Below, one piece after another: positions 15,007 to 64,000 of a stretch of 64,000 nucleotides of DNA; the stretch's first letter is position 1, and every line of letters starts with the position of its first letter. The DNA comes from an uncultured Planctomycetales bacterium (lineage in GTDB: Bacteria > Omnitrophota > Gorgyraeia > Zapsychrales > Fredricksoniimonadaceae). The translations under genes and the position numbers were made by a program. The notes under the pieces are model-generated. The model made no database searches and was not told the DNA's origin. It saw only the letters and a list, made by a program, of their open reading frames with translations. The stretch is from NCBI GenBank assembly GCA_964572155.1, contig CAZNDZ010000001.1, forward strand, positions 143,300 to 207,299, read 5' to 3'.

Positions 15007-15012
15007 TTAACT

Positions 15013-16254: not shown

Positions 16255-16258
16255 CGAT

Positions 16259-16284: not shown

Positions 16285-16290
16285 TTAAAT

Positions 16291-16319: not shown

Positions 16320-16398
16320 TTAAATGCGCTTTAAATCCCCCTTTAAAGTGCTTTATTTTTAAATCTAAACTCCCCCTTACAAAATCCTAGGAATAAAC

Positions 16399-17058
16399 AT
16401 GCCACGTCGCGCCCGCATTGTTCTACCCGGTTACTTTCATCACGTAACTCAACGAGGAAACTATCAGCAAAATGTATTCTTAAGCAATCAAGATCGAGCA
16501 GTATATTTAAAATACATTGATGAAAATGCTCAAAAATATGGTCTGAACATTTATGCTTTTTGCTTAATGGACAATCACGTACACTTTATTGTGACCCCTA
16601 TAAGCAAAGATTCACTTTCAAATACTTTTCGTGTCGCTCATCAACGATATGCTTTGTATGTAAATAAAAGAGGTCGACAATTGGGGCACCTATGGCAATC
16701 TCGTTTCTACTCCTGCATCTTATTAGGAGAACACATTGCCCGCGCTATTCGTTACGTAGAACGTAACCCAGTACGAGCAGGATTGGTAAATAAACCGGAA
16801 GATTTCTTATGGTCTAGCGCTCGATCACATTTTGGGAAAAGATATAGAATAATATCCTTAACTGATATCCCAAAATATATTACTGTTGAATCTTGGAAGA
16901 AATACCTTACAAGTGAAGATGCGCCTGAAGATTTGCAAGAAATACGAGCTAATACACTTCAAGGAAAAGCTTTTGGAAATGTAAACTCCATTGAAATTCT
17001 AGAGAAACAAATTGATAGAAATTTAGTGTTTTGCCCTCAAGGAAGACCTAAAAGATAA
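16399..17058 (+). CDS. REP-associated tyrosine transposase (RAYT, IS200/IS605-like Y1 HUH transposase)
   Basis: 219 aa; MPRRARIVLPGYFHHVTQRGN, HUH motif NHVHFIV, catalytic-Tyr block RYVERNPVRAGLV. Confidence 0.8.
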   Translation: MPRRARIVLPGYFHHVTQRGNYQQNVFLSNQDRAVYLKYIDENAQKYGLNIYAFCLMDNHVHFIVTPISKDSLSNTFRVAHQRYALYVNKRGRQLGHLWQSRFYSCILLGEHIARAIRYVERNPVRAGLVNKPEDFLWSSARSHFGKRYRIISLTDIPKYITVESWKKYLTSEDAPEDLQEIRANTLQGKAFGNVNSIEILEKQIDRNLVFCPQGRPKR

Positions 17059-17082: not shown

Positions 17083-17737
17083 TTTTTATTAAGACGACAA
17101 ACTCACCCTTGGGTGGGTGTTTTAAAAAATGTGCCTGCAGTTCTTTGGCGGTCCCCTGCTTGACCTCTTCAAACATCTTGGTTAGTTCCCGAGCGCAAAC
17201 GACCGTGGCATCTTCTAAAACTTCTTCAATGTCTTTCAAGGTCTTTTCAATGCGGTGCGGCGATTCATAAAAGATGGCGGTGCCGTCAAAATCTTTGAGC
17301 GTTTCCAATACCTTGCGCCTTGCGCCTGATTTAACGGGCAAAAACCCTTCAAAAATAAAACGATGCGCTGGTAAACCCGACGCTGTTAGGGCCATAATGG
17401 CAGCACATGGGCCTGGGAGTACTTCGATCTTAATGCCTTCGGCGAGCGCAGCTTGAATCAACGGATAGCCTGGGTCACTAATGCCTGGTGTTCCTGCGTC
17501 GCTGACCAACGCCACCTTCTTACCCTCTTTTAACTTTGCGATGATGTCTTTGGTCTTAATGGCTTGATTGTGTTCGAAAAAACTAATCAAGGGTTTTGAA
17601 ATTTGATACGCATCGAGCAAGATTTTAGTGTGGCGCGTATCTTCTGCGGCAATATAATCCACGTCTTTTAATGTTTCTAAAGCACGCAGCGTAATGTCTT
17701 TTAAATTTCCGATGGGGGTTGCAACGATATACAGCAT
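17078..17737 (-). CDS. rsmI: 16S rRNA (cytidine1402-2'-O)-methyltransferase
   Basis: 219 aa; MLYIVATPIGNLKDITLRALETL..AAEDTRHT signature. Confidence 0.9.
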   Translation of the reverse strand: MLYIVATPIGNLKDITLRALETLKDVDYIAAEDTRHTKILLDAYQISKPLISFFEHNQAIKTKDIIAKLKEGKKVALVSDAGTPGISDPGYPLIQAALAEGIKIEVLPGPCAAIMALTASGLPAHRFIFEGFLPVKSGARRKVLETLKDFDGTAIFYESPHRIEKTLKDIEEVLEDATVVCARELTKMFEEVKQGTAKELQAHFLKHPPKGEFVVLIKR

Positions 17738-23675: not shown

Positions 23676-26600
23676 CTATGCTCGCGCTTTTCTCTTTTTC
23701 TTTAACTTGCTCATGCGTTGTGCCGCTCTGCCCCTTGTCACAACACCAAGCAATGGGTGGTAGGATTCTTTATAAAGCTTTATAAATACCTCTTGGACGA
23801 TTTTTGGGATCGGCAAACTGACGATAAAATCTAATCGTCGGTTAATCTTCTCTAGCCAATCTTTTGCGGAGCGATCCATACGTGGCGTTAAATTTGAGAC
23901 GGAATCTGCCACCTTAATCACACCCAATGCAGCTAATAATAATCTGAGCGTCTCTTTGTCTTGAACTTGTCGAACGCGTTTGCGCATGGCATGTATAAAA
24001 TCCGCATCGGTTTCGCCGTTGCGTTTGGTGACGACATCAATCATGAATACAATTTCTTTAGCCGATGCAGCCTCTACTTGACTTAATAATCCTTCTAGAT
24101 TTGCTTTTGATTGTTCTAAGGTTTCACCAAAAGCAACTTCTTTAATCCTTGCTTCAACCCAATCATGCAATAATGCCGTGGACAAAGCCACATCCAAACG
24201 CACATGCAAATCATTTAAATATCGAAGTAATGGTCGATTATTAAGGACGATTTCCATAACACCCAACAAATGGAAAATATAAGGATGTCCGTCAGAGCGC
24301 TTCTCATCTTTATGCTGTTCATACGCAATGTCGAAAGCTTTAAGAATTAATGGCATATTGATATCTTGATCATACGCATAAGCCCTTGCCAATAAACGAT
24401 CAAACCATTCTCTAAAATACACAGCCACATACGCATCATATTGACGTTCATACGCATAAATAGGGATGTTGCTTAATCCCATGAAAGTTAAATCCACATG
24501 ATCCGAATACCTTTGTGTGAACTCAGGAATCTCATTGAACCATTTTTGGGCGGTTGTAATCAACATGCCTTTAGGATGAATCCATTGCACCAAGCGGTTG
24601 GCCACCAGAACGGTTGCCATGGGCTTGTTGGGATCTTGTTGGGCTTCCACCTTAAATTCCACCGCTTGCATCATAATCAGATCAAACTTTGTGCCATTAA
24701 TAGGGGCGTAATCTTCAATGCGCTCTTCTTGGAATTCAAAATATGCTTTGTACTTTTCTTGCAACTCAACGTGGTTAATGTCCGCGAATGCAAAGAAATG
24801 GTCGATGATCTTCTGTGTCTCTGTTGGAATAAAACGTTTTGCCGCATTGGTCTTGAAATATTCCAAATTGTACCTGCCACGCTTTGCAATGTTTAAGTCT
24901 TCTGGATTCGGATCAAATACTGTGATCTTAAAATTTTCTGGTGTTAACAGTTGGCCGCCCCATAATTCTGGATGAGCACGATTATCTTCTATGATATAAA
25001 CCAAAGCACGTACGGCATTAACAGCAGAAGGTTGTGTTAATTGACGCAGGTAAATGTCTAAAATATCAAGCCGCCCGCGTTGATTAAATAATTGTCTTAA
25101 ATTTGGGATGGATTTCTTAATCAATGTTACAGCACCGCTGTTGGATTTAAATAACTCGATCTTGTAACGAATGACCATGTTCTTAAAATAAGAAACATGT
25201 TGGTTGGCTTGTGCGCGAATTTGTGGGTATGTTCTTCCACCTTGTTCATTGTAGTAAATGGCAAATATTTCGTAGACGAGTGTTTGCTCTAGAACCATGC
25301 GATTTTTTAACGCTGCCGGAAATAAGATAACAACATAAATATGTTTATGCTTTGCAGCAAATCTGGTGTTCATGGCATAAAGCGTATTGCCATCTCCGAC
25401 GCGACGAGTCCACTCATCTTGCATTTTCTTATCAGCTTGCACAATCACCAATTCATTGCCTTCATTCTGGCCTTCTAGCATTTGAACCAAAACTTCTGGC
25501 GCTTTCATTTCATGAAAGAATTCTTCTATTTTTCCTCGAACATCTACATAATTTCGATCTGTCTTTAACAGACGTAATTCATGTTTAACTAAATTTAAAA
25601 TCTTTCCTCTATTAAAAAAAAGAAAATCATGCGCCTCTTTTAAACCTGCTTCATCTAACGGCAACAATGTCCGTGCAGGGTCAACGGACTTATTTTTTCT
25701 AATGTCTCGGCCAAGTGATATGAAATATGCATGAATCACACCACCAATTGCAGCGAGTGCCCAGCCATTTGATTTTGTAACAACAAAGATCGTTGTGCCT
25801 GGGAACAGAAAAGAACCTGGAAAAAATATTTTGTAGATGATGGTGCTTATCGCTAAAAATCCTGCGGCAACAACGAGTCTAGCTAAAGTTACATTGTATG
25901 CCCTTGGCCCTAGTCTATTTTGAATGATGTCAAAGGCTTGCTTACGAATCCACGCAAAAACTAAATAACTTGCGACGCTGCTACCAAATAATACGATCGT
26001 GGCTCCAAAACTATAAAGCATATTGTCATAGATTGGCCCAGACCCGAGGCTCATTAAATTCGCGATGATAAACGTCCAAATAGCTGTCTCTTTAATTGAC
26101 CTAAAATCTAAAATTTCATAACGTTCACGAGCTGTTGGATTTGAATGATTCACAAATGATGTGGCAACCAAGTTGCCAATATCTTCATTAACCTGATGGG
26201 ATAAACCTAAGATCGCACCTGCTTCATGCGCAATTGAATTTAAGATGTCTTTTTTATCTTTGTTGCGTTGTGGCATGAGAACGATGACGTTATATTGAGC
26301 ATCTTTAAAGCTAACCGGCAAATGGAATGCGGATATTTTAGGAGCGGCTACGTTACGCAAACGGTTGAGCCAAACTTTAATGTCATGCTTTAATTGCGCC
26401 GGTGCATTGATAACAATGGTGTGTTTATTGCGCAATAAATCGATCATGCGACCGATATTATCATTGTAACTAGAGTAGTTCTTTTTTAATTGCTCTAGTT
26501 GAGCAATTGTCTCTAAGATTTCTTTTTCATATGTTTGCGTCCCAGGGGCATTGTTTAAAACTGCCTCTAGGGCAAGCTCGATGCTGGGTACATATTTCGC

Positions 26601-29600
26601 AATGATCTTCCTTAACGATTGACGCTGTTGCTTTGTCATTTCCCAGGAACTACGTGCAACATCCTTAGCGTTATCTTTTAGTAAGAAGACTTCTTTATCT
26701 TTAAGACCAAAGATATGACTGACAGACCCTACATATTCTTGAGGCGTATTAAACTCTTTACCGCTTAATACAACCAAAAAGAATGTGAAAAGCTGATGAT
26801 TTGTTTTGAAATTAAGTTTGGCGATCTCTGTTTCCAGGCCCGTTTTTCTATCGCTTTCACGACGTAGATATAGTAAATATGGGATCGACCTCTTTAATAC
26901 AGCCATGGCAAAAATAAATTTCGCTGAGTGGCGCAACTGAAGCCTTGGGGCAAGTTGAAAATATTCTGCGTAAAGCGTCACCATTAAGAATAACAAGTCA
27001 TCATTCTTATAACCTTCAAAATCGATGCGATATCCAACCGCTTCATAGACAATCCCGCCGATATCATTGCCAACAGGAATTCTAATTGGAACACCTTCTG
27101 GCCAAGCAATTTTAAAAACCTTTAAATACTGCGCCTTAATCCATTGTTGTTTTGCTGCAACTTTTTCTCTTAAAGTAGGCTCTGGTGAATATACAATCGG
27201 CTGCGTCTTGATTGGAACAAAAATGCTTTTTGATGACTTGATTGGATCAATGATCACAGGGTCTTGCATATAATGTAACCATGCATGCGCTATAAACACA
27301 ACCAACGCTTCAATCCCAAACACATACAATGGTATTTTTTGTTGAAAGATAATACCTAAAACAATAAAGAGCCAAACAACCACATTCACCATATTTTTCC
27401 ATGTTGCTTTTGAAATGACTTCCGATGAACCTTCGATGCCAATCACTCGATCTAAATTGGAAAGCTTCATTAAACGTCGCTGGGCTTTAATCGCTGCCTT
27501 TTCTGTTGGTTGCTGTTCATGAGCGATAACATGGGCAATGAAACGCAAGGCTTGAGCTTGTGTTAAACCAAGCCTGTTGGTTAAAATATAATAGATAACG
27601 TCTTGAGGCTCTTCGTTATTTCTAACCGTGATCATCCATTTCCACGTCGTAACATATTGACCGTTAATCTTAACTGTTTTGCTTTGGGCAATCACACCTT
27701 GGGGCAGCATCGCATGTTCTTCTAAAAACTCTTTTAATGCTCTTGTCCATTTCGCTAAATCTCTAAATTGTTTAGCGCGCAGAACATCACGCTCTTGTGA
27801 AGCCGCTTTATCTTGTTCAAGGTCTGACCAATTGTGATGACTATCTTGAGATGTATTGTCGTTATATAACCATGGGAACATGTAACGGCTAAATCTTTCC
27901 CATGAACCTAATGACTGCAAATACTTCTCTCTTGCAATCTGGTTGATATCTTGAATGCTGGAACGGATCAACATAGCCACTTCATCATCAAAATACCGAC
28001 CCAAAATCAATCTGCGATACGGCGTCATCCATATCTCATTTAATTTAAATTTAATGTCTTCCCTATATTCAAAAGCCCATACAATACCCGCAACATAAGA
28101 TTCACCTGTTCTTGTATTCACAACTTGAGCAATGAGATTCTTTTGCAAATCACTGTTAATCATATCCCACGCTTCAGTGGCATTTAATTCTTGTGAGCTT
28201 GCTCGTAACCATATGTCTGGATAAAGTGTTGGTATGGTAAACGCGTCAGCGAGCGTCATGCTGCGGACAACCAAAACCGAATCATTCTCAGAGATAAAAT
28301 TATGCACCCGAATATGGGGCGTATTCATGATGTAATGGCTGCCAGTCTGATCATCTCTTAGGTTAAAAATATCTTTAAGCGTGACATCGATGCTCACCAT
28401 TTTTTTCTTGTCTAACGCTAATTCATGAAACCATGCGACTTGTGCGGCCAAGGCTAAGGATTCTGTTGGCTGTGCTTCGTGGCGTTTGATGTTTTCTAGA
28501 ATTTCGTATGCTCTTTGTTGTGGGAATTGCTCTAACAATAAGGCTCTGACGGTTGCTTCACCGTTTTCAAAAACAGCATTCCATTGAATCTTACCCGCTT
28601 CATGTTTCGCAAAATCAAAATGACGTAATTCACTGGCTGTTCCACGAACTCGTCCTAGACGGAGCAATTGGATGATGAAATCTTTCAAATCTTTTTCAAG
28701 CGTTGAAAAGCCTTCATAAGCAACTGTATCATTGCGGTACTTCATCTTTGCTTCGGCCATCCCTGCAATCGAAATCGCGTGACCTGCTTTCTTGGGTAAA
28801 CGAACAATGATTTGATAATAATCATCTTTTTTATTTCTGTAATCATCGACCCTAACCATAAAGCGTGGTGATTGTGTGATTAAGACAATGCGCTGCAATT
28901 TTCCTAATTCAAATGTGCGGGACAACCATCGCCCAAGCCAATATAAACGCCCATTGATGAGTTGCAATTTTCTGACCGTCAATAATGCATCCAAACGTTG
29001 CTCTCGGGTTTGAAAGTCTAATATATAAACTCGTTTTGTGTTAGGTAATGGATAAATCATCGACACGCCGCGACGTTCATCACCCCGTGAACTAAAGAAA
29101 TATCCATCATTAAACTTAGCCGCACCAAAAACTTCATGAAAACCAATTGCGGATTCAGGGCTATGGGTCATTAAAAATTCCACATTAGAATCTTGCATGG
29201 CCAACGCTTTGATATTGGTGATCAACAGCTTAGATAGATCTTTAGGGAAGTGGCTTCCATAATATGCCTTGCGATCTTTTGACACGCCTTTTAGATATGG
29301 GATACCGGTGCTGTGTGGGACAATGGCATTGCCATTAGGATCAAAGTTGTTTCGTACTTTCTGAATCGATTCCCAAATGGTTCCCTTCACATCACTTGAT
29401 TCAATTTTTGCTAACAGCAAATCATCCAACATAACTTTTGTCGTCCAGATAACAGAGCCCAAATAAGCACCTGAACCATTTTGTGCAACTTCAGCAACTA
29501 ACTGACCTTCAGGGTTCTTTAAAATCATGCCCCAAGCTTGATGGGCATCAAAGATATCTGACGGTGTTGTCATCCAAATGTCCTGTTGTAATGCAGCAAC

Positions 29601-32600
29601 AGGCAATGCGTCACTTAATGTCATGTGACGGATGATAACAACTTCGAAAACACCATCTTTGGTGCGATTGTAAATGCGCACATAAGGCTTATCGCTTTCA
29701 TATGCCTTGGGATCATCACCTTCTTGCAATTCATAAATGGAACGTTGAACGACTTCAATCGTTGCTTGACGACGACGATCTTGAGCTAATCGCTTAACTA
29801 GCAACTTTTGCGCTAAAATAGCGCGTTCTTCCGTCGACTCTGCTTCATGCACCCTAATGTGTTCTAAGATCTCGAATGCTCGATTGGCTGGGAAAACTTC
29901 GAGGAGCAACTTTAAAACCGTAGCTTCACCATTTTCAAATGCCGGATTCCAAACAATATTACCAAAATCATGGCGGGCAATTTCAAAAACACGTAATTCT
30001 TGCGGTGATCCTCGAATACGGCCGGTATCTTGGAGATATTGCAAGAACACCGTCAAATCCTTTACAAGATCAACAAATCCTGCCTTTTGCATGCCTTCAA
30101 TGGTCATGGGATGATCTTGATGTCGTTTGATGTATTTGATACCATCCGCGTCGACATTTTTAGCCGATATGAATTCAAAGATGGCTGCAAGCCCATGTAA
30201 ACCTGCCATTGCAAAAAGCGTATACTTTACAAAAACGGATATCACCCCAGCGGCTAGCAGCGATAGAATCGGCGCCGCACTTAATATAGAGTCAACCATG
30301 ATATACGGCGTGATCAAGGCTGCGACTGTAACAGGTTCAACATATAACCCTGCCGCAGCCAATAATAAGGCCGCAACAGCACTGGCAAAAAATCCAAACA
30401 AGAACGTTACGCCACTCACACCGTCGATACGACCTTCGTGAAAATTTACTCTGACTTTCTGTCCAAACATCAATGCCCCAAGCAAATGCCCAAACTCATG
30501 CCATGCGATGACGCCGGTATATTTCAATAAGTTTCTGACGCTCGACGATAAACCAAATGGCAATTGGTCGGTCCAAAGCAAAAGACCAAGATAGGCAGTT
30601 CCTGCAAAAACCTTGGTTCTTATAAAACCATTTAGATCCAACTGTTCGAGCCCATTGCCTTCGAATACTTTTGGATGCAAATATATTTGATGTGCTTGAG
30701 TTTTTCCAATCACGCTGCTGGCCGTAACCCATGTGATCAGAAATTTATTACTGGGATTGATCCAAGCAATTTTGAGGGGATCGATGGCTTTATTTGTTAA
30801 GAACTTTAATGTTTCTGGACTTAAAGCCTTCATGAAACGTTGACGTTCGACGTCATTTAATTCTCTTGGTAAATCGGTGCCAAAGTATTGCTCAACTTGA
30901 ACACCTAAGTTTTTTCCGTTCTCTAGAAGTGAGCGAATGAAATCAACTTGGCGTTTGATGTGTTTCACTGGATCAACCTGATAAAACTCTCCCACCACAG
31001 TGACTAAGCGTTGGGCAATTTGAATAGCATTCAAGTAACCTAAATCATCAAGTTGTTGATTCACAAAGATGAAGATAAATTCATCACCGCGATCCTTAAC
31101 ACCCTGCCATTGCGCCTTCATCGCTAAACCAACAGACTTAAATTCACCGTCCATTTTTCCGGCACTGGCCAACACATTTTTTAAACGCGCTGCCACATCA
31201 GGACGGCCTTGCGTTAAGCGATCTATCGATGCTTTAGATAGCGCCGTTAAATCAATTAATATGACACGATTATTGCGCAGCATGTCGGCCAACAAGTTCC
31301 CCATGGATAAACGTGGTTCTTTCGCTTCTCTAATATTAATGGTTTGATCCGGATGAGTTTGTAAGAAGTCGACCGCGAGTGTCGCAGCAAAATGATTCGG
31401 CTTTAATGTATGGTCTACATGGTTAGAAAACACAACACTATAGAGTTGCTTGAAGATATTGCGATAAACACCACTGTAACCATAACGCATTTGTGCTTGA
31501 TCGCTATCATATTGCAAGCCAACGTATGTATCGACAGATCTGTTTTGTTGATCTTTTTCAAAATCTCTAAACACAGCATCTAACTCATACTCAGCTTGCC
31601 TTTGTTCTTCTTCTAGCATCAAGGTTAAAATGGTGTTGCGGGCATATTCATCATCGGAAACAGCGCCTAAAATATCTAAGCCATCATATAAATGTTGTAA
31701 TTCAACAAAGTTTTCTGGTTTGCCTGTGAAATGATTTAAGGTAACATCAATGGCTTGTTGCTCATTTTCTCCTAACGCTTCATGTCCTAATATTTCATGT
31801 CGCAAAACATCTTTAAGCACCGCCAAAAATTTCGTGCTGCTGCGTTCATTCGTATTAAACGGCGGCAACATGGACATGGGGATCACATTAAGCAAAACGC
31901 GTCGGGTTTTAAAATCATACTGAGCTAAAATTTCTTTTGGAACAGCATTGGTAATTACAATGTTGTTCATGCGGCTAACAGGTAATGACAACCCTTCAAG
32001 TGCGGCTCGCACATAGGCTTGCTGACGGGCCAATAATTCATCGCCAGATGTAAATTTATCGGTGTCCAAACGGTGATGCCAAAAATCAAAACGTGATGGG
32101 TAATCAGATTTAATTTCAACAGGTGGCGTTCCAATGACGTCGACGATTTGGCCAGATGAAACTGGTTTTGGTGAACGGGTTGTATAGACTTTGGTCTGAC
32201 TGGTTGAATTCCAAGGATTGTAACGCCAGAAGGTGATCAAACGATCCAAGCCCTCTGGTTCAACCAAGGCCACTTCACTAAATGTTAAGACAAACATCTT
32301 TTGCACGGCCACCATATTGATTAACCCGTCATACATGATGCCGTATAATTTACGCACGTCACTAGATGCATCTCTAAAATCAACATCGCCTAAATGAATG
32401 TGATGATCCGTGACGTTGGAATTCTTACTATGGTCCGTCGCTTCTTCATTCGCTACTCTTAAGCCAGTGGTAAATACTTCAGCGCCGCCAGTAAATAAAT
32501 CACGGTAGCTCCACCCTGTTAATATCCCTTTGGTTTGCTTGGCAGTGGTTGCCACGTTGGCGGCGCGTTGAGGATCAATGGGTAAGAAGAAAAATGCCTT

Positions 32601-35600
32601 TGTACCACGTCTGACGCCACTTAAGAATCTAGCACCAAAATGGTCTTCGGCATTACCACCATGTTCAGCCACTTCTTGGGATGCGTGTGCAGTAGCATGC
32701 AATTTGCGTACTAAGATTTCTAAGAGTTGATGATAGGCTGATTCAGCACCGATCGCAAAGGTTGGCATTCCCAAACGATCCCACAGTGGATGATTCTTAA
32801 AGTAACGCATGACAATCGTAAAGCCATATAAGTTAAACAAGAACAACAATGTTTCAATGGTAACCGCAACAATGTTTAAATTCATGCCAAAAATAACGCC
32901 CGTGATAAACAGTTTGTTCCAAATCAACGCAGGGATAGAGAAGTTTAAAATTAAATATGAAACATTAAAAACCTTCCCCCACATAACTTCTTTAATACGC
33001 CACGCTAAATAATGTGCTTTCTCATTTATTGTTGCACTAACTGTTGATTCAATCGTTAATCCTTTATGATCAACTCCTAGAACTTGTTCGATTTTTTTGA
33101 GCGCATCATTGCGCAGGCGCATCAAATGTCTAAAGCCTTCTTTATTGATTTCCATCATGAAGCGGTACTGACGGCTATATTTTTGACGCATGCCGCGATG
33201 CAAGAACACGGCTAATTCGTTAACCAACCAAATCAATGCTGTTGTATCGACCGTTGATGCTTCAGAAATGCGGATATTCGCATCGGTGATAAACAAACGG
33301 CGACTAAATGGGGCCCCATCGCTAAAGCGTTGACCAATGCCCTTGGCCATGATGGTGTCAGGGCGATTATTTAAAACAAAAACACGCCCTGGAAACATGC
33401 TTTGCAACTTACCAACACCCGCTAAGGTTGGGAATGTTTGCCCTGAATCACTGATCGCAAAAAATATCGTTCTACGGGTCGCACCGTATTCGCGAGGATC
33501 ATCAACGAGCTTGTTCGACGAAATCGCTGAGATATTTAAATATGGGAAAATGACCTCTAATATTTCCTTAAGTTTTTCGCCCACCCATTGTGATTTTTCA
33601 AAACCTGTGATGATCAAATGTCGTTTCTCAAAATCAGCGATCTTATTCTTATGTATCTTTTCATGGAAATGACCATTGATCGCATCAACAAAGGCATTCA
33701 TGGCATTTTTGCTATCGTGTTCCCAATCCCAATCATTACGTACTTTGTTAAATGAGCTATTTAAGTAAGCTAAAATATTACGGCTAAGCACAAGCACCCA
33801 TGCGCTCAACTCTTTATCAAATTCTTTGGAAAGAGCATTTAAATCGATTGCTTGATCTAATTGTCCTGTTTGTGATAACTCATCGATTTTGTCCGAAACA
33901 AACTTTTCAGCCATCCCATAGAAGTAATCCTCTAATAAGGATTTTCCTTCAACAGCGTCCATCATGTCGGTGACAAACTTTTCGCGTGCTGACTCATCAA
34001 CCAACCCTACCTGATTACGCGCGAAGCGTTCGATCAACGTTAAAAATTTAGGTCTAAGTGTTGAAAAGCCCGTTGTGCGGCTTTTGATTTCATTTTCAAT
34101 AAATAGCGCTTCTAACATGGCCAACAGGTCTTGGGCGCTTTGATGGTTTAATGATGCTGGATTACTGAAACTATTGGTGATGCCAAGCAAAACACGGGCT
34201 GTATCTTCCATGTCAAACTTCACATAATTCTTAACACCAGCATAATCAACGAGCGGACGGTAGAACTGATTGTTTTCATTGAGCGACATCAAATTGTTAA
34301 AGAATTCATTCCCTGAAATCTCACGGCCTATATTCATGTTATAAACACTGACTTGGAAACGTCCATCCGCATACATGTTAAGATCTGCCACTTCACCTTT
34401 TCCGGTAATGTCCATGTCATAACGCTTGGTCAAATATCCTTTAGAACCATATTTGACTTGTAAGACCAATGATTCAGAAGCAAAACCGAAGAACTTTTCT
34501 TTCGTGTTAAAACCAAATGAGATGGCTTGATCGCGTGTAAAGAATGAAAGGCCATTGTTGAGTGAAGTGCGCACCACAACACCGAAGCTGCCTTCAGCGC
34601 GTTGTGCAAAGGCACGTGTGGCACGGTAACGATCATTGATAAAGAATGCGCGCAACACCCCTTCGACAAACACATCTAATTGTTGTGCATCTAAATGCCA
34701 ATTTCTAACGATTGCCGCTGCATTTTGATCCGCCAATAAAGCCTTAGTGATATCTTGGCGTAATTGATTTAAGCGCTCGCGTTGCTTTAACTTGACTGCA
34801 TCATCCGTCTGGTCAACTTCAACCCAAAGATCAGACAATGTTCTTCGTGGCTTATTAGCATTGAATTTAGAAATAGCTGCGGCATGTTGTTTAAAGATGT
34901 TGTCAATAACGCCAGCGATCGTGTTGCGGTCTTTGATGGATAAAGCCGTATTATCTTTAGCGACGGCTTCCAATGGCTTTTTGCCATTAAAAATATCTTG
35001 AGGTGTTTTAATAACATTTAAAATCCATGAGTTAATGACCGCAGATGTAAACATGCCTTGATTAAAGAATAATCGCACTGCACCGGAGGCTGGTGGAGAA
35101 TCGCCTGGGGTTTCGTCGGCAAACGGATAATCAAAAGGCTTCTTTACTTGTTCAACATGAAAGACATTCTTTAATAATTGGCGCAATTCATCATTATCGA
35201 TCTTACGCCCTAAAATATCAAAATAATCAAAATCCCCGTTATGAGTGATGGCCACAATCACCGTCTCAGTAGTCTTAACCAAGGCGCCTTGCGCATCAAA
35301 CGACCATACTTCAACATTTAATTCAACAAAGTCAACGTGAGGATGCGAAGCATTTGGCTTTGCTTTACCCGCCGTTGCAAAACGCACGTGACCAGATAAC
35401 AAATTGACGCCCAAGACTCCCTTTGCACCTTGCTTAATCATATGAATTACTTTTTTGGCCCAAGCACGTTCCATGACATCAGCAAGCAGAGGTCGTTTGC
35501 CTTTCATGGCTTTTAACATCAACATGCCATACCCACCTGTCGCATCACGGAAAGATTGGATCATACCTGCTGTTTGACCACCGCGGATGGTGATCATGGT

Positions 35601-38600
35601 CAATTGATTGCGTCTTGCTTCAACCGCCCAATCAGGATTGATTTCTGGTTCGAGTGAATTATCAATCCAACCAAAACCAAAGTTACCGCACTTAACCTCC
35701 TCATCGTAAACGTTATTTAAAACGTCTGTGATAAATGACAAAATAGTCGTAACCAAAAATCCAAAAACCATTGGAAAACTTACAAACGATACCCAAGAAA
35801 TAAAACCAAGATATCCCATCAATGAAACCATCAACAGTGTCAGATTTGATACAAACCCTGCCAATCGAACGCTCCAAGTCGCTGGTACGCGCGCATGAGG
35901 TTGAGCTTTGAAATATCCAACTACTGGTATTGCAGCAAATAATATTTGAGCTGGTGTTAGATTTCCTAGTAGATTGCTTTTATTTAGAAACTTACGGTCT
36001 TCGGTCACACCAGCTGCGAATGTATGCGCGGCTTCATTAACCACAAATCCTAAGACCAAGCTCACTCGAAAAACAATTATCCCAAGTAATGCCTGTATCC
36101 AACCACCACTCATGCCAATGCTTAGAATATTCAATAAATCTAATACCTTTAAATACCGATTAGGATTTAAAACTCCTGCTCCTCTATCATTATCCATCCC
36201 CAACCGCATGCCGCCTTGTGGCACGCCGGTTGAGCGGTCAATGATTTGAGCTGCTTCTCCCTCGCTGCTTAGAATTGCTTGCTCTGAAACTAACAATGTT
36301 GATCTTTCTTCATCATGAGTCAAGCGATGGGCGCGTAATTGCGCTAAATATGGGTCATTGTCATAAACAAATTTTTCGACGAATTGAATATGCTGATCAA
36401 ATGCATTTAAGTATTGAATGTAGGGAATGGTTCTAAAGCGGAAAACTTGGTCATTGCTTAATTGTGGTTCTTTGATGCTAGCGACTTCGTCAAACAAGAT
36501 AATTTTCAAATCTTGCGGTGGCGCACGTAATAACGCATTCATGTTTAAGTGAATCTCATTTAAACGCACCGTCGCAAAATATTTCAGACCATTGTTCACG
36601 CGAATACGAGGAGCAAAACCATTTAATTGTTCTCTGATAAAAGGCAGGACATGCTGATCAATAAATCGCAGTTCCACTGCTGTCGGCGCTCGCGGCTTGG
36701 CGTTGTGGTCAACTAATTCATCTTTTAAACGCAAAGGATAATTCTTTGCTTGATTCTTCTGAAATACTGATTCAAATCCATATGCAATGGAAATATGGAT
36801 GGGTTGGGAATTTTCCTTTGAAAATACACGACCAATGCCTTCTTGGAGACCTTCAAAATAGCTATTGATAGGGCTTGGTAAATCAGAGATTCCTCGAGAT
36901 GATAACAAGCTCTTTAATGTTCTGCCTGTCCTTAACATGACCAATGGAATGATAAAGTCACCTACAATATGTAAACTTCTAATCGGCATAACTTCTAGAA
37001 AACGATCATGCAGTTCATTTGAGTTTGGATCTTTAAAAAATAACGCTTGTTGTGCATCGATCCAATCCCGTGCATCTTTTATGCTGTACCCTAAAACATT
37101 TGTTAATACGCTAACTAACTTGTGAACCTGAGATTCAACACTAAACCATGCGCCTGACCGAATATACGCTTTTAATAAAATGTCGTAATCGCTCTCTCTT
37201 ACCCACTCAAATATTTTCTGAACATTGGATATGAATCTAACTTCTCGCTCTGTTGTATTAAAAGCAATGCGCATGAAACCTGTAAATGCTGGAAATTGTT
37301 CTAAGCCTAAATTGGCATAATCATATCGATTGAAGATATTATTACCCGCTAAAACTTTCTCAATCCTCTTGGCAAATACCAAATGATCATCAACAAACGG
37401 CTCAACCACCGCAACAGCCTCAAGTGTTCTTAAATCTTGAACAAGTACTCCCATTTTTTGGTTATTGGTGTCTTCTAAAGACATTTTCTGTGACGATAAA
37501 ACAATCTCACCTTCACGGCGTAATGGTCCTGTTAAAAATTGATCTCCAAAGGCCATATACAAAGCAGGTCTATCTGCATCATACATATCCAACAATGCTT
37601 CTTTAAGCGCATATAAGAACATGTCATCTCTGGCTGTAAAAACACCCTCCGAACCTTCTAACAATGACTTCGATAATAATGGCAATGTGAAATTTTCTTT
37701 TCTTAAACTTTCATTGATTGCTTCAAACATTTCCTTATCTTGAGCATCACCTGCTAATAATACAAGTCTACGTGTTTGGGTAATTGGCAAATCGAAGCGC
37801 GCCGCATCAATGAAATCTTCCCCATAAACTCTAAAACCTTCAGAAGGATTGTTTTTCGCGTATTTCCATAACTCGCTCAGCGTGGTTGATCTTCCTAAAT
37901 AATCTAAGGACATGAGAAACGGCCATAAACTGCCTCGTCCTACTTCCGTTGGCATAAAAATAATTGGGGTTTTATACAAGCTGGTTGATCGCATCATCAA
38001 ATATTCTTTTGAAGCACGAACAACATCCTGATCGTTTTCAACTGAGAAGATAATCATGTCGAGTGGGCTTGAATTGCTTTGTATATATCTTAAAGCATCC
38101 ATTTTCTTGCCCCACTGCAGCTGTTTAAAATAATCCCTTGTAAAAATGTGCTTCGCTCTTCCGATAAATATATTATTTAATTCCTCTTCAATGAACCTAA
38201 AACGACGTTCTACTAAATCAATGTCAGCTAATAACCCGGATTTGTTCTTCAATATGAATGGCAAATAATTAACTAAAACACCTGCACTGATCACCAATAA
38301 ACTTAATGTGGTCATTAATGTGAATCCTGTAAAAAATGCAAGATTTGTAAACATGATCGCTATGCCTAGGGGCACAAGAATTCTTCGACCAATCTGACTA
38401 TGACGCCAATAACGTTCAATAGAGAAATCTGTATCTTTCTCTTCTCCGCCTTCTAGCTTCTTCCCATCCTTGATAGAAATAAGTAATGCAGACCACTGTA
38501 TCAAAAATTCACTTGTTGATTCTTTATAAAGCCCAGGAATAAAACCATTGCTCTGATCATGAATCTTCTTAATTTGTTCTAGCGCTGACTGAATATACTT

Positions 38601-41600
38601 GTTTCCATTATAATCCAACCCCGTATGCCATGATCTTGCAAACTTCGTCCCATAACGCTGATAAAGATCTGCCAAATATTGACCTCTCGCAGATTTCCCA
38701 AAAAACTTAGGTATTGCATAATTAAACACACGGCGTGCAGAATAAATAGCCTCTAGCCCACCTAAGATATTATTGATCAATTGCCTTGTTTCTTGAATAA
38801 TCAGCAAAGCAAATGCTAAAACTTCTTTAAGCTCATCTGAGTCATCAGTTTTTGCTTGTTGATAAATGAAGTCCGTTATGATCTTATTTATCGATTTCTG
38901 TAGTTGGCTGTATGTACTCTTATATCTGACGACATTATCAGCAACCTTAATGGGGGAAGAAAAATTCTCTAGACGAATGATAAAAATAATCGTATTGAGA
39001 ACATTAGAGATTTCATCTGTCGTAAAGTATCTATCTTTTACATCTGTTTTCTTTTCTTTGATTTCAATAATCTGACTTAAATAATCCAACGCTTCTTGAA
39101 TCAACGTATCTTTATCTTTAGGTGTTTCAGAACGACCATTAGTCGTTGTACTCTGATTGACATTATTCTGACGATTATTTTCAATGTTTTTAATGGTGCG
39201 CACAAATGAGGATTTTGTTTCAACGGCTTGTGCCTGGTCAATTGATGCTTTAGGCTCATCATGCATCACAACAGAAATACTAGCCAATTCATTATTTGGA
39301 TCAAACGCAAATTCTTCCACAGGTGCTTGAGGTGCGGGTTTTGGTCCGTTAGATTTACGCTTGCCACCTCGAGGACCACGGCCATTGTTGCCCGTAATTT
39401 TGCGAATTAATCTTCTTAATAAGAAGTAAATGATCGCAACAACGGCTCCTGCGCCTGCAAAGCCAGCGGCAATTTCAGCAGCGCGTTGTGGCCATGTTAA
39501 GGTGTTTGATACATCATAAATGGTTTTCCAGTTAGCAACTTTGAAATCAAAGGTCTTATAAAACGTCTCCATCTCCAAAACGCGGTCGTTATAAAATTTC
39601 TTGTCGCCGTGTTCCAAAATTGGCAGCCATTTCCAAATCACATCATCAATTTTATCTTTATCATTTGCTCTTTGAATGGCCTGTTTGATTTCTTCTTCGA
39701 CAGCTGTATTCTTAAGCGGTGTATTGGTGTCTCTTACATTAAGTAGTTCTTTTAATTCTTGCTCGGCCAAACGTGCTGGTAAGGCATATTTATAATAGCT
39801 GTCGACCTTAGCCCAGTTTTCATTGAGTACCGCTGATTTCTCAACAACAGCCACAAGTTTTTGAACTAAAGGTTTATCTTGAACTGTAGGGCCAAAGTTT
39901 TCAAAGAGAGGTCGGACATGTAATATTTCCGCTGCGAGCAAAGCATTATTAAGATTTGAATTTTCTGTGACATTGATGCGGCGTTGCATTTCATCCGCCA
40001 AGATGCGCAAGGCATCACCATCTTTAGACGTTGCTAGAATTCGTAATGCTAAAAGCACTTCATCATTATTTGCTTTTGGATCCGCCAAAACTTCTTTTGC
40101 GATCTTTAAACGAATATCCACGGCATTATTTTGTGCATTGGCGCGCGTATTTTCAAACTGTGCCAAAGCCCATAAGACCTTGTCTCTTAAGACAGGATCT
40201 TTGAACTTTTCAGCTATCATATAAACCGCCAATGGATTACTCTTCCCCTTAAATTTAACTGGGTCGCGTTGTTCATCATAGTGATCAGACACGAGCGTCA
40301 TGATGGCATATTCACTATTTAAAACATCCGCCCCAAACAACCATTGATTAATCAAAGCCGTACGTGATCCTGTTGATTGAGCATACGTTAACGCGCTGCT
40401 GCAAACTGCTAAAGCAGAATCCATACGTTTATGGAAATCATGGATGTTAATCGTCATCTGGCTAAAGAACCGACGGGTTGCATCCTCATAATTAACTCTT
40501 GGTATCGGCCGACTTAAATTGATCAATGTTCTGGCGCGTAAAGGCTTGTCTTCAACAAGATTACTAAAGGTGCTTTGTTTGTACCCATAAGGCACAATAG
40601 CCCTAACCTTATCATGAAGGGTTGCATCAATTTCGGACATCAAGTTGATGGTCAACCATTCTTTGCCAATGCTTAATGGATCATTTTTGATTTTGTTTAA
40701 TTTATTCTGTGCCAAGAAATCTGGTTCAAGACCAGCAGCCATTTGCTTATATGCTTTAACAGCTGCAACAGCTAACTCTTGATAAAATTTCTGAGCAATA
40801 ACATCGCGGGTATCAATTGGATATTGTTCATTAAGATTCTCAATGACCGCGCGCAATGCACCCGCAGCTTGTGTGTTGTTTTGTAATTTACCTAAAGCAT
40901 CGATTGCGGCTTTGCGTGCAGGAACAAATTCATTTTTATCGTTAGCACGTTCGCCTAAGAATGTCACAATCGCATCATCCAAAGGCAATGTCTTCCATAA
41001 GCCTGCTTCTAATACAGACCCTAATGCCCCAATCATCGCCGTCTTATCATTATTTTCCGTTGTCTTCTTGGCCACATCAAAGACATTGATCACATCAACT
41101 GTCTTTGGATCAATGTTAACGATCAACCCTGTGCTTAACGTAACTTTTGATGCCGCGGGAACATTAGTAGAATCACGTAAGTTGCGCATGGCGCTCATTT
41201 GTGTTTGTAATAATAATTCTTTGCTTTGGCCTTGTGCCACGGTTGGTCGTTGTGGCAAGGCACGCAATTGACGATCAATCTGATCACGGACGACATTTTG
41301 ATCGAGTATTCTAAAGATAGATTTAACCTTGGTGATATGTGCTGACAATGATCCGGAATTAAACAAGGTCACATTAACCGCATCTTCTAAGATAAACTCG
41401 ATTAATGGTCTTACAAAAACTGGACTTTGCACATTTGCAGGGTTTAATTTTTCAAAGGTCATTAAAGCAATCGTGAATTTCTTGTGCGTTAATGCATCGG
41501 TTAAAATTTGTTGGGCATATTCATTATTGGTTTGAAGCAAGAAATCTACAATGGCTGCGGCTAACGCTGGATCAACGTTCTCTTCCTTTAATACAGCTGC

Positions 41601-53600: not shown

Positions 53601-56600
53601 AATGCTTTGCACACCATAAATGCTATCTATTAAATTTGCCAATCCTTTGACTGCAAAATTAATCTCATTTAATCGACGGGCAAAGGTTGCATCTTCTTTG
53701 GCGCGTTTTAATTGTTCTACTTCTTGTAATTGATCATTTCCAATTAAGGCTAAGAAGCGATTGACGGCTGCGTCGATCTTGGCTTTTTCTTGATCGTTAG
53801 CGACATGGTTCGTCTCAGGGAAGATTCCTTGCACATATCCAAACACATCGTTGTAAAGTTCTTCATTCAAGATTTGATGTTGATTTACAATCTTGTCGTT
53901 TGGATCACGACCTTTTTCTAACTTTTGTTGAACTTCTGTATTCAAGATGGCTTGGAAGATCTTGGTAAATCTTGAAACATAATCCATGACATCTTTGAGA
54001 GCTTGGGTTCTGGCTGCGCCGCTTAAATTAAGCGCTGGCATGATCTTGGTTTGCCATAACCAATCTTCTGCACGGCCTTGTCCTGTTAAACCAAACATGC
54101 CACGTTGTAAAACAGCCTTCATGAAATATGCTTTTTCGACGGAAATCACTTGCCCCGTTAACAATTTATTAATGTAAGGAGAGCTTTGTGTATGGTTTTC
54201 GATAGGATAAAGGTACAACCCTGAGGCGATATCCATGGCATCGAATTCTAAACGTTCTGGTAATAATTGCGTGTTGCGAATATTGTTTAAGAATGTGCTT
54301 CTTAATAAAACGCGTTGATCATTAAACTTAGCGCTAAATCCAAGATCTTGATCAATTTGATCCACAATCGCTTCAACGCGATTCATATAACCTGCAGATA
54401 CCATCGTTTTCTCGATAATCATCTTTAAGAAAATACCTGCAGCTTGGGATTTTGATACACGACCCACATAGCTTGCTGCTAACTTACCATTAAAGATCGC
54501 TGCCGTATCAATACCCAAATCACGTACCATATTTGTTACACCAATAACGCTTGGGCTCATTGGGTCTACATCACTTAAACGTGCAATCGCAGCAATCACT
54601 TGAGGCATGTTGCTCTTCAATTGTAAGTCTTTCAAGTCTTCATTGGTAAAGACATCTTTACTCTTATAGATATAACGACGATCTGAGGCTAATAAGCGCA
54701 TGGCGCGTGCAAAACGCGCTTGTACATAAATGCGTTTCAATAAACTACCGGACTTCATAACTAAACTTTGTAATTGATTGCTTAACGCAACAACTTGTTC
54801 ATAGTTTGCAAATGCACCATTCAAGCGACGTGCACGAATGATGAATGCGGCTTGAGCTTGAGTAAATCCTAAGCTTTCTAAATCTTTCAACCAGCTGGTG
54901 TTGATATTGAAACGCTTGCCATGCATTGCAAACCAGATCCTCGTACTTAACCATGGCGTGAATGCAACGAATAAGAACACCAGTCCACCAGCAGCCAACA
55001 TTAAATTGACAAAGCCTTCGACAAAGAACGAGGTCATTGTCTTTGGTGACGTACCAAGCTTGCCTTGGAAATCACCTTGCATGGTCATGAAGTTTGGTTG
55101 ATTGATAGGATTATTATCTTTATCTAAGAAGCTAAAACGCAAAGCTTGATTATTCTTTTCTCTTAAGATTTCATTAATGATGTCTTCTTGAGGACCCTTG
55201 AAGATGCGTTTGACCATTCCGATAGCGCTTGTTTCATTTAAGTCGACATCATTTAACACCGTATCATATGGATTCGTATCGACCTTGAAATTATCTTTTT
55301 GGACAATGCGTTTGCCGTTTAAGAATAATCCTATTTCTTTTCCATCGATATATTCATGGGTGAAGCGATCCCACCATGAAGCAACCTTCACGTCTGCTGA
55401 AATCAAGTGATAAACGTTGCCCTCTTTATCTGCATAAAGATAGTTATCAAATGAAGAGTATTGTTTTTCTTGGCCATCTTCGATGGCATTGGTATACAAC
55501 GGATAACCATAGCCGTCAAAGTCGAAGTAGTAGATGCGGCGTTTGCCGTCTTGGTAGCGGCGTTCTTCAAAATATAACCCTGTGCGCAAATCATAGGTGA
55601 TGGCTGAGTTTTCAACCTTAACCATGTTCTCTAATACAATCTTGTACTTAGCAATGTGCGCATTATTTTGATTTGGATCAAAGACGTATTGGGTTTCACG
55701 TAAGTGATTGTTAAAACCACGGATCTTTTTGTTCAAGATCACTTGGCCTGGGGATAAATCGTAAGGCACGTTTGATACCGCGCGTTCCCACCATTTAACA
55801 AAGCTGATTTCACCAGATGGGCCTTCAACAGCTAATGAGCGGTTTAATGGATCATTTGGAACTAAATATGTTTTAATGGCTGCTTTTTCAAAGTGTGCGA
55901 ATTTAGCACCGACAGGCATCAATGGGTATTCAACGATAACGTCGAGCGATGTTTCTGGATTAACATCGAAATATTCTTTCATTTGCTTCTTAAAGCCATT
56001 AAACAATTCACGAGCTTGAATCTTTGAACCATTTTCTTTCATAGGTTCCAATTCTTTGATCGCACCATATGACATGATCTTATAACTGTGAATTGGACTG
56101 CCTTCTGTTCTCCATTGTGTATTGATCTGAACGAATGTTCCTGGGTTCATGACATCTGGATCTTTGCGGATTTGGGCGAAGATAACACGAGCTAACGGAT
56201 CTCCCTTAATACGATAGGCAATTGAATTTAAGCCGTATGGACGTTTTTCAACAGCCATCTCAACCTCAATTTGTCCGTCAATGATGCCTAATTCTTTCGC
56301 AATGTCTTGGATACCATTCTTGAATTCCTGTGAGATGCTAGCTCTTAAAGCATCATTGGAATTTGTATTGTTCAAATATTCTTGAATCCTGCCTTCGACT
56401 TGTGGCAATGGTAAGGTGAAAATCTTGGCGCGAACATTGATTGTTTGATCATTGATCACAAATGAACTACCAACTAAGAACGCTCTAGCTGTGACAATAT
56501 CGCTATCTAAAATATTGCGTAATTGAGCATGGTATTCATTGCCTGCAACACCGCCATCTGGAAGTCTATCAAAACGTCCAAACTCAACACCAGAAATAGC

Positions 56601-64000: not shown

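Follow-up and report, generated by a model that had tools for sequence, protein, structure and literature searches.

Omnitrophota are known to encode thousands of multi-transmembrane (TM) proteins of at least 10,000 aa, a described class of giants with scattered enzyme modules and HEAT repeats (West-Roberts 2023, 10.1101/2023.11.21.568195; Nielsen & Lui 2026, 10.64898/2026.06.07.730766). The lack of known cleavage points has been named as an obstacle (West-Roberts et al., 10.1101/2023.11.21.568195). Class-II glutamine amidotransferases (GATases), the second relevant system, are Ntn hydrolases that are activated by the autocatalytic removal of the residues preceding their nucleophilic Cys (PMC9140057). 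The gene described here belongs to the kind already catalogued in Omnitrophota and, as a mere giant ORF, is not new; the original prediction that it corresponds to no described family is out of date, since multi-TM giants with enzyme modules and HEAT repeats have been described in Omnitrophota. What is new is an embedded paralogue of GlmS whose chemistry predicts a specific cleavage site.

The window, a 64,000-nucleotide stretch of DNA, carries the giant ORF on its minus strand (visible part 23676..64000), the strand on which all protein features given below also lie. From the first GTG at 63926 to the stop codon at 23676-23678, the frame (23676..63926) runs for 13,416 codons without interruption, and within these coordinates the other two frames of the minus strand contain 908 and 1,227 stops. 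A chance origin of such a frame is excluded (P about e^-900), as had been argued from its length. The GC content of the ORF (~0.41, predicted as about 40%) is uniform with that of the flanks. No stop is found upstream of the GTG, the frame stays open through base 64000, and the 5' end lies beyond the window. In a 94%-identical relative, L004, gene calling yields 12,870 plus 5,926 residues before the contig runs out within the gene, so the full length is no less than 18,796 codons (56 kb or more) and the gene is not the single 40-kb gene first proposed. The part of the gene N-terminal to the window amounts to at least 5,380 aa, and our domain searches cover the visible 13,416 aa. L004 comes from an independent assembly of another sample and is collinear with the window over 27.9 kb, across both module borders, its reading frame being uninterrupted except for one 1-nt deletion in a CCC run. 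The two sequences diverge by 3-9% at the DNA level and are separated by 13 indels, all of whole codons; dN/dS, calculated against this single relative over aa 4122-13416, has an overall value of 0.22, and most 500-codon windows do not exceed 0.2. By these sequence comparisons, the giant ORF is a genuine coding sequence under purifying selection and not a misassembly.

The surroundings of the gene are those of an ordinary chromosome, as predicted. An AlkD-like gene (PF08713, 2e-53) lies 31 bp from the giant ORF, and downstream there are eight co-directional housekeeping genes followed by an IS200-like ORF on the opposite strand; the gap and the co-directional order had been described correctly, with nine genes counted in place of eight. 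A canonical glmS is located 4 kb from the giant gene, and the nearest relatives of its product are almost all from Omnitrophota MAGs (57-64% identity). This one marker, which has no close species representative, points to an ultra-small bacterium of the Omnitrophota as the most likely host. A DsbA-like gene is also present near the giant gene. Synteny of the giant gene with glmS in other Omnitrophota was considered and rejected: the 80 loci held neither a large ORF nor a tblastn match. The N-terminal 600 aa gave no match in GTDB species genomes and JGI metagenomes, nor did the N-terminal 1,500 aa in an indexed protein search.

Recognizable domains were expected from end to end of the protein, but all analyses together assign only about 13% of its residues to any domain or feature. 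In a Pfam profile search of 1,250-aa tiles, LysM and HEAT_2 alone exceed the curated cut-offs; NCBIfam gives weak, sub-threshold matches only, and a PDB sequence search returns LysM, a faint RelA/SpoT match, and nothing else. A weak ComEA-like helix-hairpin-helix (54780..54920, aa 3003-3049; HHH_3 E=4e-4, below cut-off; NCBIfam ComEA E=0.037) directly follows the first hydrophobic helix (aa 2971-2989). The predicted LysM peptidoglycan-binding module is borne out (45477..45605, aa 6108-6150; Pfam 33.8 bits, cut-off 20.9) and sits in a ~110-aa loop between hydrophobic helices 6071-6089 and 6202-6220; its best HMMER stretch spans profile positions 1-18 of 43, the PDB match to the SafA LysM covers ~43 residues, and its PHROG match is an endolysin LysM. 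The proposed zincin is limited to a HELTH motif found by regular expression (44634..44708, aa 6419; Pfam Zincin_1 E=0.087). The HEAT repeats (40836..41030, aa ~7633-7697) fall within a block of 1,419 aa bounded by helices 6714-6732 and 8152-8170, and the alpha-solenoid assignment is upheld in part: HEAT_2 exceeds its Pfam cut-off when the 1,250-aa tile is searched (30.1 bits) and falls below it on a shorter piece (22.7 bits).

Toward the C-terminus, an S2P/M50B-like HEFGH sequence (30180..30527, aa 11143; Peptidase_M50B E=0.0058, 16.8 bits, cut-off 26), located at the start of the hydrophobic cluster aa 11173-11255, retains the standing of a weak candidate. It was rejected as a duplicate of the HExxH membrane domain that precedes the amidotransferase (see below), with which only a 17-residue motif aligns. 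A SpoT/RelA-like HD domain (23889..24338, aa 13197-13346), near the very basic C-terminus, contains the motifs GHPYIFHLL, LLHDWVE, and IKVADSVSNL, and its predicted assignment appears weak but consistent (HD_4 E=0.0011, 19.1 bits, cut-off 27.2; NCBIfam SpoT E=0.001; PDB GTP pyrophosphokinase E=0.025). Tile-vs-tile BLASTP detects a single clear internal duplication (28077..30113; aa 11272-11494 vs 11716-11950, 31-45% identical), the remaining protein being non-repetitive. A variable cassette (25557..26789, aa ~12380-12790), which includes helices 12642-12702, is 24-45% identical to L004 between flanks that are 99-100% identical, with the frame kept. In the visible 13,416 aa, Pfam and NCBIfam detect no glycoside hydrolase, lytic transglycosylase, dockerin, SecA_DEAD, or peptidase C39/S8, and Pfam detects no glycosyltransferase, methyltransferase, glycosyl hydrolase, or NUDIX domain at E<=0.01. 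A repeat-built adhesin or an NRPS/PKS was rejected, as the protein is non-repetitive and has no adhesin, condensation, KS, or AT domains; it has only its size class in common with RTX/Bap-type adhesins and NRPS/PKS megasynthases, differing in its many TM clusters and in the absence of tandem repeats and of any of their domains. A defence-system or phage origin was likewise rejected, PADLOC giving no match and PHROGs only the endolysin LysM, both searched with aa 1-10,000.

Between aa 2971 and 12702, a crude hydropathy scan places about 14-15 clusters comprising 26-36 hydrophobic helices, in accord with the prediction of 13 or more TM clusters, and soluble blocks of 200-1,400 aa lie between these clusters. 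The LysM loop is probably periplasmic and the SpoT-like HD domain probably cytoplasmic. The chain would alternate between the two sides of the membrane, with the LysM loop and the HEAT block outside and the GlmS-like and SpoT-like HD modules inside. A Lys/Arg-rich stretch after helix 8152-8170 would fit an inside position when parity is counted from LysM as outside, the hydropathy scan being the sole source of helices for this topology.

With 13,416 visible residues and this number of helices, the protein is of the length (at least 10,000 aa) and the TM content by which the Omnitrophota giants were catalogued. Its closest counterparts there are the Archaeovorin type of West-Roberts 2023 and the multi-enzyme and Pfam-dark classes of Nielsen & Lui 2026. 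It shares with them a probable Omnitrophota background, ~2 TM helices for every 1,000 aa (catalogued proteins of >= 10 kAA average 22), HEAT repeats, sugar-phosphate-enzyme-like content, a candidate HD domain, and a mostly unannotatable, singleton sequence. Full-length giants typically carry an N-terminal C39/S8 peptidase near a signal peptide. Unlike the catalogued giants, the visible part yields no SecA_DEAD, glycosyltransferase, methyltransferase, NUDIX, dockerin, or TSP3 domains, and its neighbours are housekeeping rather than secretion genes. For the Archaeovorin type, SecA_DEAD and SecA preprotein-binding domains give no Pfam match in the visible 13,416 aa, and from the set of glycosyltransferase, methyltransferase, glycosyl hydrolase, peptidase, NUDIX, and HEAT domains only HEAT_2 is found in this part; for the Dockerin type (West-Roberts 2023), dockerin and TSP3 repeats give no Pfam match, and the protein is non-repetitive. 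Neither West-Roberts 2023 nor Nielsen & Lui 2026 mentions a GlmS paralogue whose Ntn Cys is internal, an almost complete exclusion of cysteine, or a cassette that varies between strains.

A complete GlmS-fold module (32142..35690, aa 9413-10595) was delimited using AF2, Foldseek, hhalign, and a family profile, in agreement with the GlmS-like GATase plus SIS originally predicted. It consists, in order, of an Ntn glutaminase, helical insertions, the first SIS domain (aa ~10100-10294), a hydrophobic helical hairpin (aa 10295-10377), and the second SIS half. The MSA-based AF2 model (pLDDT 86.2, pTM 0.87) matches E. coli GlmS (2j6h_A) in Foldseek over the whole 608-aa enzyme (E=9.4e-15, TM 0.74). 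Upon alignment to GlmS by hhalign (98.6-98.8% probability), K9412 falls on Met1 and C9413 on Cys2, and the family profile searched against the PDB places GFAT/GlmS at the top (E~1e-6), with the family Cys on Cys1. Across 61 family members, C9413 (codon 35688..35690), G9414, R9448, G9449, H9513, R9515, N9563, G9564, D9565, and D9609 are invariant, and T9518 is kept in 60; the equivalents of GlmS Cys1, Arg26, Arg73, Asn98-Gly99, and Asp123 are thus all invariant, with Thr76 at 60/61. The S-x-S-G-x-T phosphate loop of the first SIS domain is kept at 88-98% in the family. On the strength of alignment and structural model, the catalytic residues and the alpha-beta-beta-alpha fold of a class-II amidotransferase are present. 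The double-SIS fold is present in the Foldseek match, but the second SIS half aligns by fold only and gives no sequence alignment, so that counterparts of the GlmS isomerase catalytic residues (Glu488, His504, and Lys603) are no more than putative.

The differences from GlmS are considerable. Identity is about 11%, the module contains ~590 aa of insertions including the hydrophobic helical hairpin, and a membrane domain lies ahead of it, in the giant protein as part of the 9,412 or more residues on its N-terminal side. The module scores under all Pfam and NCBIfam cut-offs (TIGR01135 and PRK00331: 17.8 and 13.4 bits, cut-offs 381 and 418). As a canonical glmS lies nearby, the embedded module is a paralogue, and by its sequence a distant one rather than an equivalog. 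The membrane domain before the amidotransferase (35694..36101, aa 9276-9411; family alignment, domain HMM 91.7 bits) carries HExxH in a helix in most family members, and NExxH in the window protein and in P0002, its closest relative in the family.

Counted by cluster representatives, the family has 469 members or more; most are stand-alone proteins of 1,000-2,800 aa, and the stand-alone homologues are found on long contigs. At two syntenic loci, the stand-alone homologue adjoins amt-glnK-GSIII, behind a GAF-ANTAR regulator. The match of the window protein to the loci holding P0002 and P0005 is confined to aa 9226-10761, and the rest of the giant protein has no match among 150 family proteins. 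The locus scan used a 7-sequence alignment, the full 37-sequence alignment being too divergent. A homologous locus, L087, looks like a chain of ORFs; it is no evidence of natural gene splitting, because three of its junctions are scaffold gaps (runs of N). A word-indexed search with the GlmS-like module had returned 1 match, and an exhaustive search returned 469, so that 468 distant relatives had been missed. Since the exhaustive search covers one 1,150-aa stretch (aa 9300-10450) and the remainder was searched by word index, the picture of a mosaic of otherwise unique sequence may in part reflect a limit of search sensitivity.

The giant ORF is almost devoid of cysteine, with 2 observed among 13,416 residues against about 188 expected (P~1e-77), and this exclusion is uniform over all 40 kb. 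One of the two is the Ntn nucleophile, Cys9413, and in P0002 the single Cys in 3,022 aa is likewise the nucleophile. In the AF2 model, order begins exactly at Cys9413 and the preceding residues are disordered. Three homologues begin with MCGNFGF directly after an upstream stop, and in most family members the Cys is internal, with 130-1,230 residues ahead of it. Because an Ntn enzyme requires a free N-terminal Cys, we infer cleavage before Cys9413, presumably autocatalytic and between K9412 and C9413, and with such a cut the ORF would be a mosaic polyprotein precursor. The bond K9412|C9413 also fits the specificity of trypsin, the corresponding bond in the relative strain is N|C, and a cut here would expose an N-terminus reading CGNFGFGW. 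As in Ntn-hydrolase precursors (MEROPS C44, class-II amidotransferases with propeptides), residues precede the nucleophilic Cys and the structured domain begins at it. The class-II propeptides known so far are short, with a few to tens of residues and not thousands, whereas the putative propeptide here would comprise 14,800 aa or more of membrane protein.

We therefore favor, with a probability of roughly 60%, a reading in which the window holds the 3'-terminal 40 kb of a gene that spans 56 kb or more, arose by fusion, and encodes a membrane-anchored mosaic, cleaved as a polyprotein and acting in amino-sugar chemistry of the envelope. The gene would have formed by in-frame fusion of membrane-protein genes, yielding an inner-membrane-anchored, non-repetitive mosaic of unrelated modules, each with its own hydrophobic anchor. 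The chain would cut itself between K9412 and C9413, as the amidotransferase requires a free alpha-amino Cys, and the pieces would remain co-localized via their anchors. At the cell surface, the assembly may then carry out amino-sugar or cell-envelope chemistry, which would accord with the part in host or prey interaction that has been suggested for giants of this class. More tentatively, and at somewhat under even odds, Omnitrophota giant ORFs of this type may be fused polyproteins in which the cut at this bond frees a membrane-tethered, active GlmS paralogue, the cysteine exclusion being a signature of how they are made or exported.

The chain could also remain uncut, as a single membrane-stitched scaffold in which the internal-Cys GlmS-like module works as it stands or serves as a sensor of glutamine or sugar phosphate or as a pseudoenzyme. 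An internal Cys is the norm in this family, with 130-1,230 residues ahead of it in most members, which makes an uncleaved mode of action possible, and the amt-glnK-GSIII and GAF-ANTAR genes beside the stand-alone homologue could fit nitrogen sensing. However, a mere binding module would not need the full Ntn catalytic set, invariant in 61/61 members, nor does this reading sit well with the homologues that begin Met-Cys like real GlmS or with the retention of Cys9413 despite extreme cysteine exclusion. The free alpha-amine is, moreover, required by Ntn chemistry (PMC9140057), and we regard an uncleaved chain as rather unlikely.

More improbable still is an exported, cell-wall-targeting effector of predation or attachment (Archaeovorin-type), with a mostly extracellular chain that binds and degrades the envelope of a host or prey and enzyme-like modules that act outside. 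Such a role has been proposed in the literature for Omnitrophota giants, LysM and HEAT repeats are present, and the strain-variable cassette suggests an exposed interaction surface. Proteins that pass through or fold in an oxidizing compartment typically avoid cysteine, and the exclusion seen here, with a DsbA-like gene nearby, would also be consistent with export. But the visible 13,416 aa hold no glycoside hydrolase, lytic transglycosylase, dockerin, SecA_DEAD, or C39/S8, the neighbours are housekeeping and not T2SS or pilus genes, and GlmS- and SpoT-type modules act on cytoplasmic substrates (glutamine, Fru-6-P, nucleotides); the proposal is less an alternative to the polyprotein reading than a partial overlap with it. 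An assembly artefact or a decaying pseudogene, that is, misjoined genes or a long functionless ORF, merits hardly any weight. The original prediction had named misassembly as what would overturn it, and the separate GlmS-like genes elsewhere, the one frameshift in L004, and the chain-like L087 locus might seem to argue for it; yet three of the L087 junctions are runs of N, the independent assembly is collinear over 27.9 kb and both module borders, the frame survives 3-9% DNA divergence and 13 whole-codon indels with a dN/dS of 0.22, and uniform cysteine exclusion over 40 kb speaks for a single evolutionary unit.

Giant multi-TM genes are now recognized as common in Omnitrophota, and this locus offers three handles on them: a module whose structure is confident, whose catalytic mechanism is identifiable, and whose predicted cleavage site is defined by sequence; stand-alone homologues for comparison, some beginning exactly at that site; and the easily scored signature of 2 cysteines in 13,416 residues, one of them catalytic. 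It also shows how severely word-indexed searches can undercount relatives in the case of such giants (1 vs 469), so that their label as dark matter may be partly an artefact of methods. If the polyprotein reading is true, no giant bacterial protein would have had a cleavage point defined before this one, and the homologues would constitute a family, both new and widespread, of GlmS-like amidotransferases that are processed and anchored in the membrane.

The giant ORF runs uninterrupted for 13,416 codons on the minus strand (23676..63926; residues are numbered from the first GTG at 63926), and because 908 and 1,227 stops fall in the strand's other two frames across this interval, a chance origin is excluded, as had been argued from the sequence. 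Its GC content (~0.41) is uniform and equals that of the flanks. Upstream of the first GTG there is no stop and the frame is open as far as base 64000, so that the gene is cut by the window; the original prediction of a real ORF holds, but the gene is not complete in the window, since its 5′ end lies beyond the edge. An indexed protein search returned a single match, P0001, a 94% identical protein of 5,926 aa encoded on a 56.5-kb contig (L004) from a different sample. Gene calling on this contig yields 12,870 residues, truncated by the contig start, followed by the 5,926 residues, implying a full gene of at least 18,796 codons with at least 5,380 N-terminal residues absent from the window. The two calls are separated by the loss of one nucleotide from a CCC run (L004 ~9991, corresponding to giant aa ~7490 and window ~41455); this may reflect faulty assembly, or the gene may truly be divided into ORFs of 12,870+ and 5,926 aa. 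Over the 9,270 codons alignable between the window protein and this single relative, DNA identity is 91-99%, dN/dS (Nei-Gojobori) is 0.22 for the whole alignment, with most 500-codon windows at 0.02-0.2, and all indels (13/13) comprise whole codons. The giant ORF is a selected coding sequence whose continuity is backed by an independent assembly; given the low dN/dS, the whole-codon indels and that assembly, we discard the readings of the ORF as a misassembly or a pseudogene.

The same comparison reveals a variable cassette at aa ~12380-12790 (window 25557-26789), which contains two helices and retains only 24-45% amino acid identity between strains, with saturated dS, a preserved frame and sharp bounds to flanks that are 99-100% identical. 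This cassette is an allelic replacement, and its pattern suggests an exposed interaction surface. Over the rest of the gene, dS is mosaic (0.003-0.29), suggesting recombination among strains.

Within the giant ORF, the GlmS-like module (aa 9413-10595) lies far below curated GlmS cut-offs, and BLASTP and a custom GlmS HMM picked it up as two weak, collinear matches, with a full score of 10.0 where 200 shuffles reached 4.2 at most. Exhaustive, unindexed HMMER with aa 9300-10450 as query recovered 469 relatives at E<=1e-3, 84 of them at E<=1e-30, mostly 650-3,600 aa long, Pfam-negative and without names, many of them 25-44% identical to the module along most of its length. Ten residues are invariant in 61/61 aligned sequences (C9413, G9414, R9448, G9449, H9513, R9515, N9563, G9564, D9565 and D9609) and T9518 is conserved in 60/61, a set that includes the equivalents of GlmS Cys1, Arg26, Arg73, Thr76, Asn98-Gly99 and Asp123; the SIS phosphate loop (S10159, S10161, G10162, T10164) is present in 88-98% of sequences. 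Searched against the PDB, the family profile places GFAT/GlmS structures on top (E~1e-6), with the family Cys on Cys1, and when compared with a profile of 20 GlmS sequences, it reaches a probability of 98.8% (E=7.5e-17), the local alignment setting aa 9412-10247 on GlmS 1-424 with K9412 at Met1 and C9413 at Cys2. The AF2 model built with the family MSA (pLDDT 86.2, pTM 0.87) begins its ordered structure exactly at Cys9413 and contains a long hydrophobic helical hairpin at aa 10295-10377; Foldseek ranks full-length E. coli GlmS (E=9.4e-15; TM 0.74 when normalised to GlmS) and human GFAT-1 as its closest matches. Together, invariant residues, profiles, AF2 and Foldseek strongly confirm the predicted GATase plus SIS arrangement and identify the module as a distant GlmS paralogue. 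The second SIS half matches by fold only, and any isomerase chemistry is accordingly putative. The window also contains a canonical glmS with a full score (827 bits), at 17737-19566, 4 kb downstream of the giant.

The giant ORF contains 2 TGY codons where ~188 are expected (Poisson P~1e-77), compared with 1.4% Cys in neighbouring genes, and one of its two cysteines is C9413. Cysteine is similarly scarce in the strain relative (3 in 9,271 aa), in the large ORFs of locus L087 (0-0.3%) and in P0002, the closest homologue, encoded there (44% identity), whose single Cys in 3,022 aa is the catalytic one. In three metagenome loci, the homologue starts with MCGNFGF... right behind a stop codon, like canonical GlmS; in other loci, 130-1,230 residues of the ORF precede the catalytic Cys. 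As Ntn hydrolases (MEROPS C44), class-II amidotransferases need their nucleophile at the N-terminus, where it becomes exposed once the enzyme has autocatalytically removed the residues in front of it (PMC9140057). From this requirement, we predict a cut at K9412|C9413; the giant ORF would then be a polyprotein of at least two parts. The known propeptides of GATases are short.

The long GlmS-like proteins form a new, previously unnamed family of at least 469 cluster representatives (loci L085 10001-15547, L089 8001-14036 and L088 8001-14816, also L092, L095 and L121). Some members begin at Met-Cys, and many carry an N-terminal membrane HExxH domain; in most, this membrane-helix motif lies ~120 residues before the Cys, and it reads NExxH in the giant and P0002. 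Most family genes stand alone; they encode 1,000-2,800 aa, and the contigs bearing them reach 793 kb. Two loci are syntenic (GAF-ANTAR regulator, family gene, ~95-aa ORF, amt, glnB/K, GSIII, GATase), and in three loci an ORF of 92-100 aa comes after the family gene. The match between the giant and the loci of P0002 and P0005, another family protein, is confined to aa 9226-10761, and none of 150 family proteins matches any other part of the giant. P0002 sits within a run of large co-directional ORFs, but runs of ten N occur at 3/6 ORF boundaries of L087 (GCA_964480185.1; near 3595, 5082 and 9953), so this chain is partly an assembly artefact, and the ORFs there are in truth longer than their gene calls. 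The giant gene may have grown through in-frame fusion of membrane-anchored units, a pattern with which TM + HhH (ComEA-like) and TM-LysM-TM units are weakly compatible. A word-indexed search with a query containing the module found 1 match, missing 468 distant relatives among the 469 of unindexed HMMER; labelling the remainder of the giant as orphan is therefore unreliable.

A Pfam scan of 1,250-aa tiles at curated cut-offs is passed by LysM (aa 6108-6150) and HEAT_2 (aa ~7650) only, with HHH_3 (aa ~3004) and HD_4 (C-terminus) below threshold. NCBIfam gives weak matches to GlmS (E=9e-4), SpoT (E=1e-3) and ComEA (E=0.037), a PDB sequence search yields LysM and a faint RelA/SpoT match and nothing else, and permissive domain-sized scans find M50B around HEFGH-11143 (E=0.006) and Zincin_1 at HELTH-6419 (E=0.087). 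A single ~220-aa internal duplication (aa 11272-11494/11716-11950) interrupts an essentially non-repetitive protein. With so few domains over threshold, the claim of recognisable domains from end to end is unsupported; the kinds of module originally listed were largely right, their coverage overstated.

A Kyte-Doolittle scan finds 26 strict or 36 permissive hydrophobic helices in ~14-15 clusters from aa 2971 to 12702, and none within the first 2,970 or last 714 residues of the visible ORF. Since the LysM loop is flanked by two helices, LysM should be periplasmic. Counting parity from LysM would place the HEAT block (aa 6733-8151) outside, in accord with published HEAT localisation (West-Roberts et al., 10.1101/2023.11.21.568195). 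The Lys/Arg-rich stretch after helix 8152-8170 would lie inside. The GlmS-like and HD modules would likewise lie inside, their substrates being cytoplasmic.

The anticipated ordinary chromosomal context is borne out by housekeeping neighbours. Downstream follow AlkD (across the 31-bp gap already noted), a 141-aa ORF, TrmB-like, D-Ala-D-Ala carboxypeptidase, DsbA-like, L27, canonical GlmS and RsmI, and further on an IS200-like and a Peptidase_S74 ORF on the other strand, the pyr operon, Fpg and a BcaP-type transporter. The pair comprising the 421-aa Peptidase_S74 (endosialidase chaperone) ORF and the IS200/IS605 Y1-transposase-like ORF (14989-17058, plus strand) separates rsmI from the pyr operon and breaks the series of minus-strand housekeeping genes there. 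Envelope glycosylation genes occupy the far end of the window (736-5971): a YfhO-like membrane protein (736-2781, minus) and two overlapping large plus-strand ORFs (2806-4413 and 4331-5971), one PMT_2-like glycosyltransferase and one without a Pfam match. Canonical GlmS has its nearest relatives, at 57-64% identity, almost exclusively in Candidatus Omnitrophota MAGs, and the exact neighbour proteins occur on a 1,344,502-bp NCBI contig, at least 4% of which replicon the giant gene would fill.

Omnitrophota genes reach 85,804 codons, and their full-length giants all contain numerous TM regions, most with SecA_DEAD domains, frequently with HEAT repeats and with sugar-phosphate enzyme domains (West-Roberts et al., 10.1101/2023.11.21.568195); a later catalogue lists 5,761 proteins of 10 kAA or more, 80% of them sequence singletons, and includes a 'multi-enzyme' architectural class (Nielsen & Lui, 10.64898/2026.06.07.730766). 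The giant ORF fits the pattern of these known Omnitrophota giant multi-TM proteins, and the view that it belongs to no described family is out of date. Neither paper mentions a GlmS paralogue with an internal Ntn Cys, the GlmS-like family or cysteine exclusion. What our analysis adds is a confidently identified GlmS paralogue with an internal Ntn Cys, from which a testable cleavage site is predicted, a new family of long GlmS-like proteins, and an extreme exclusion of cysteine.
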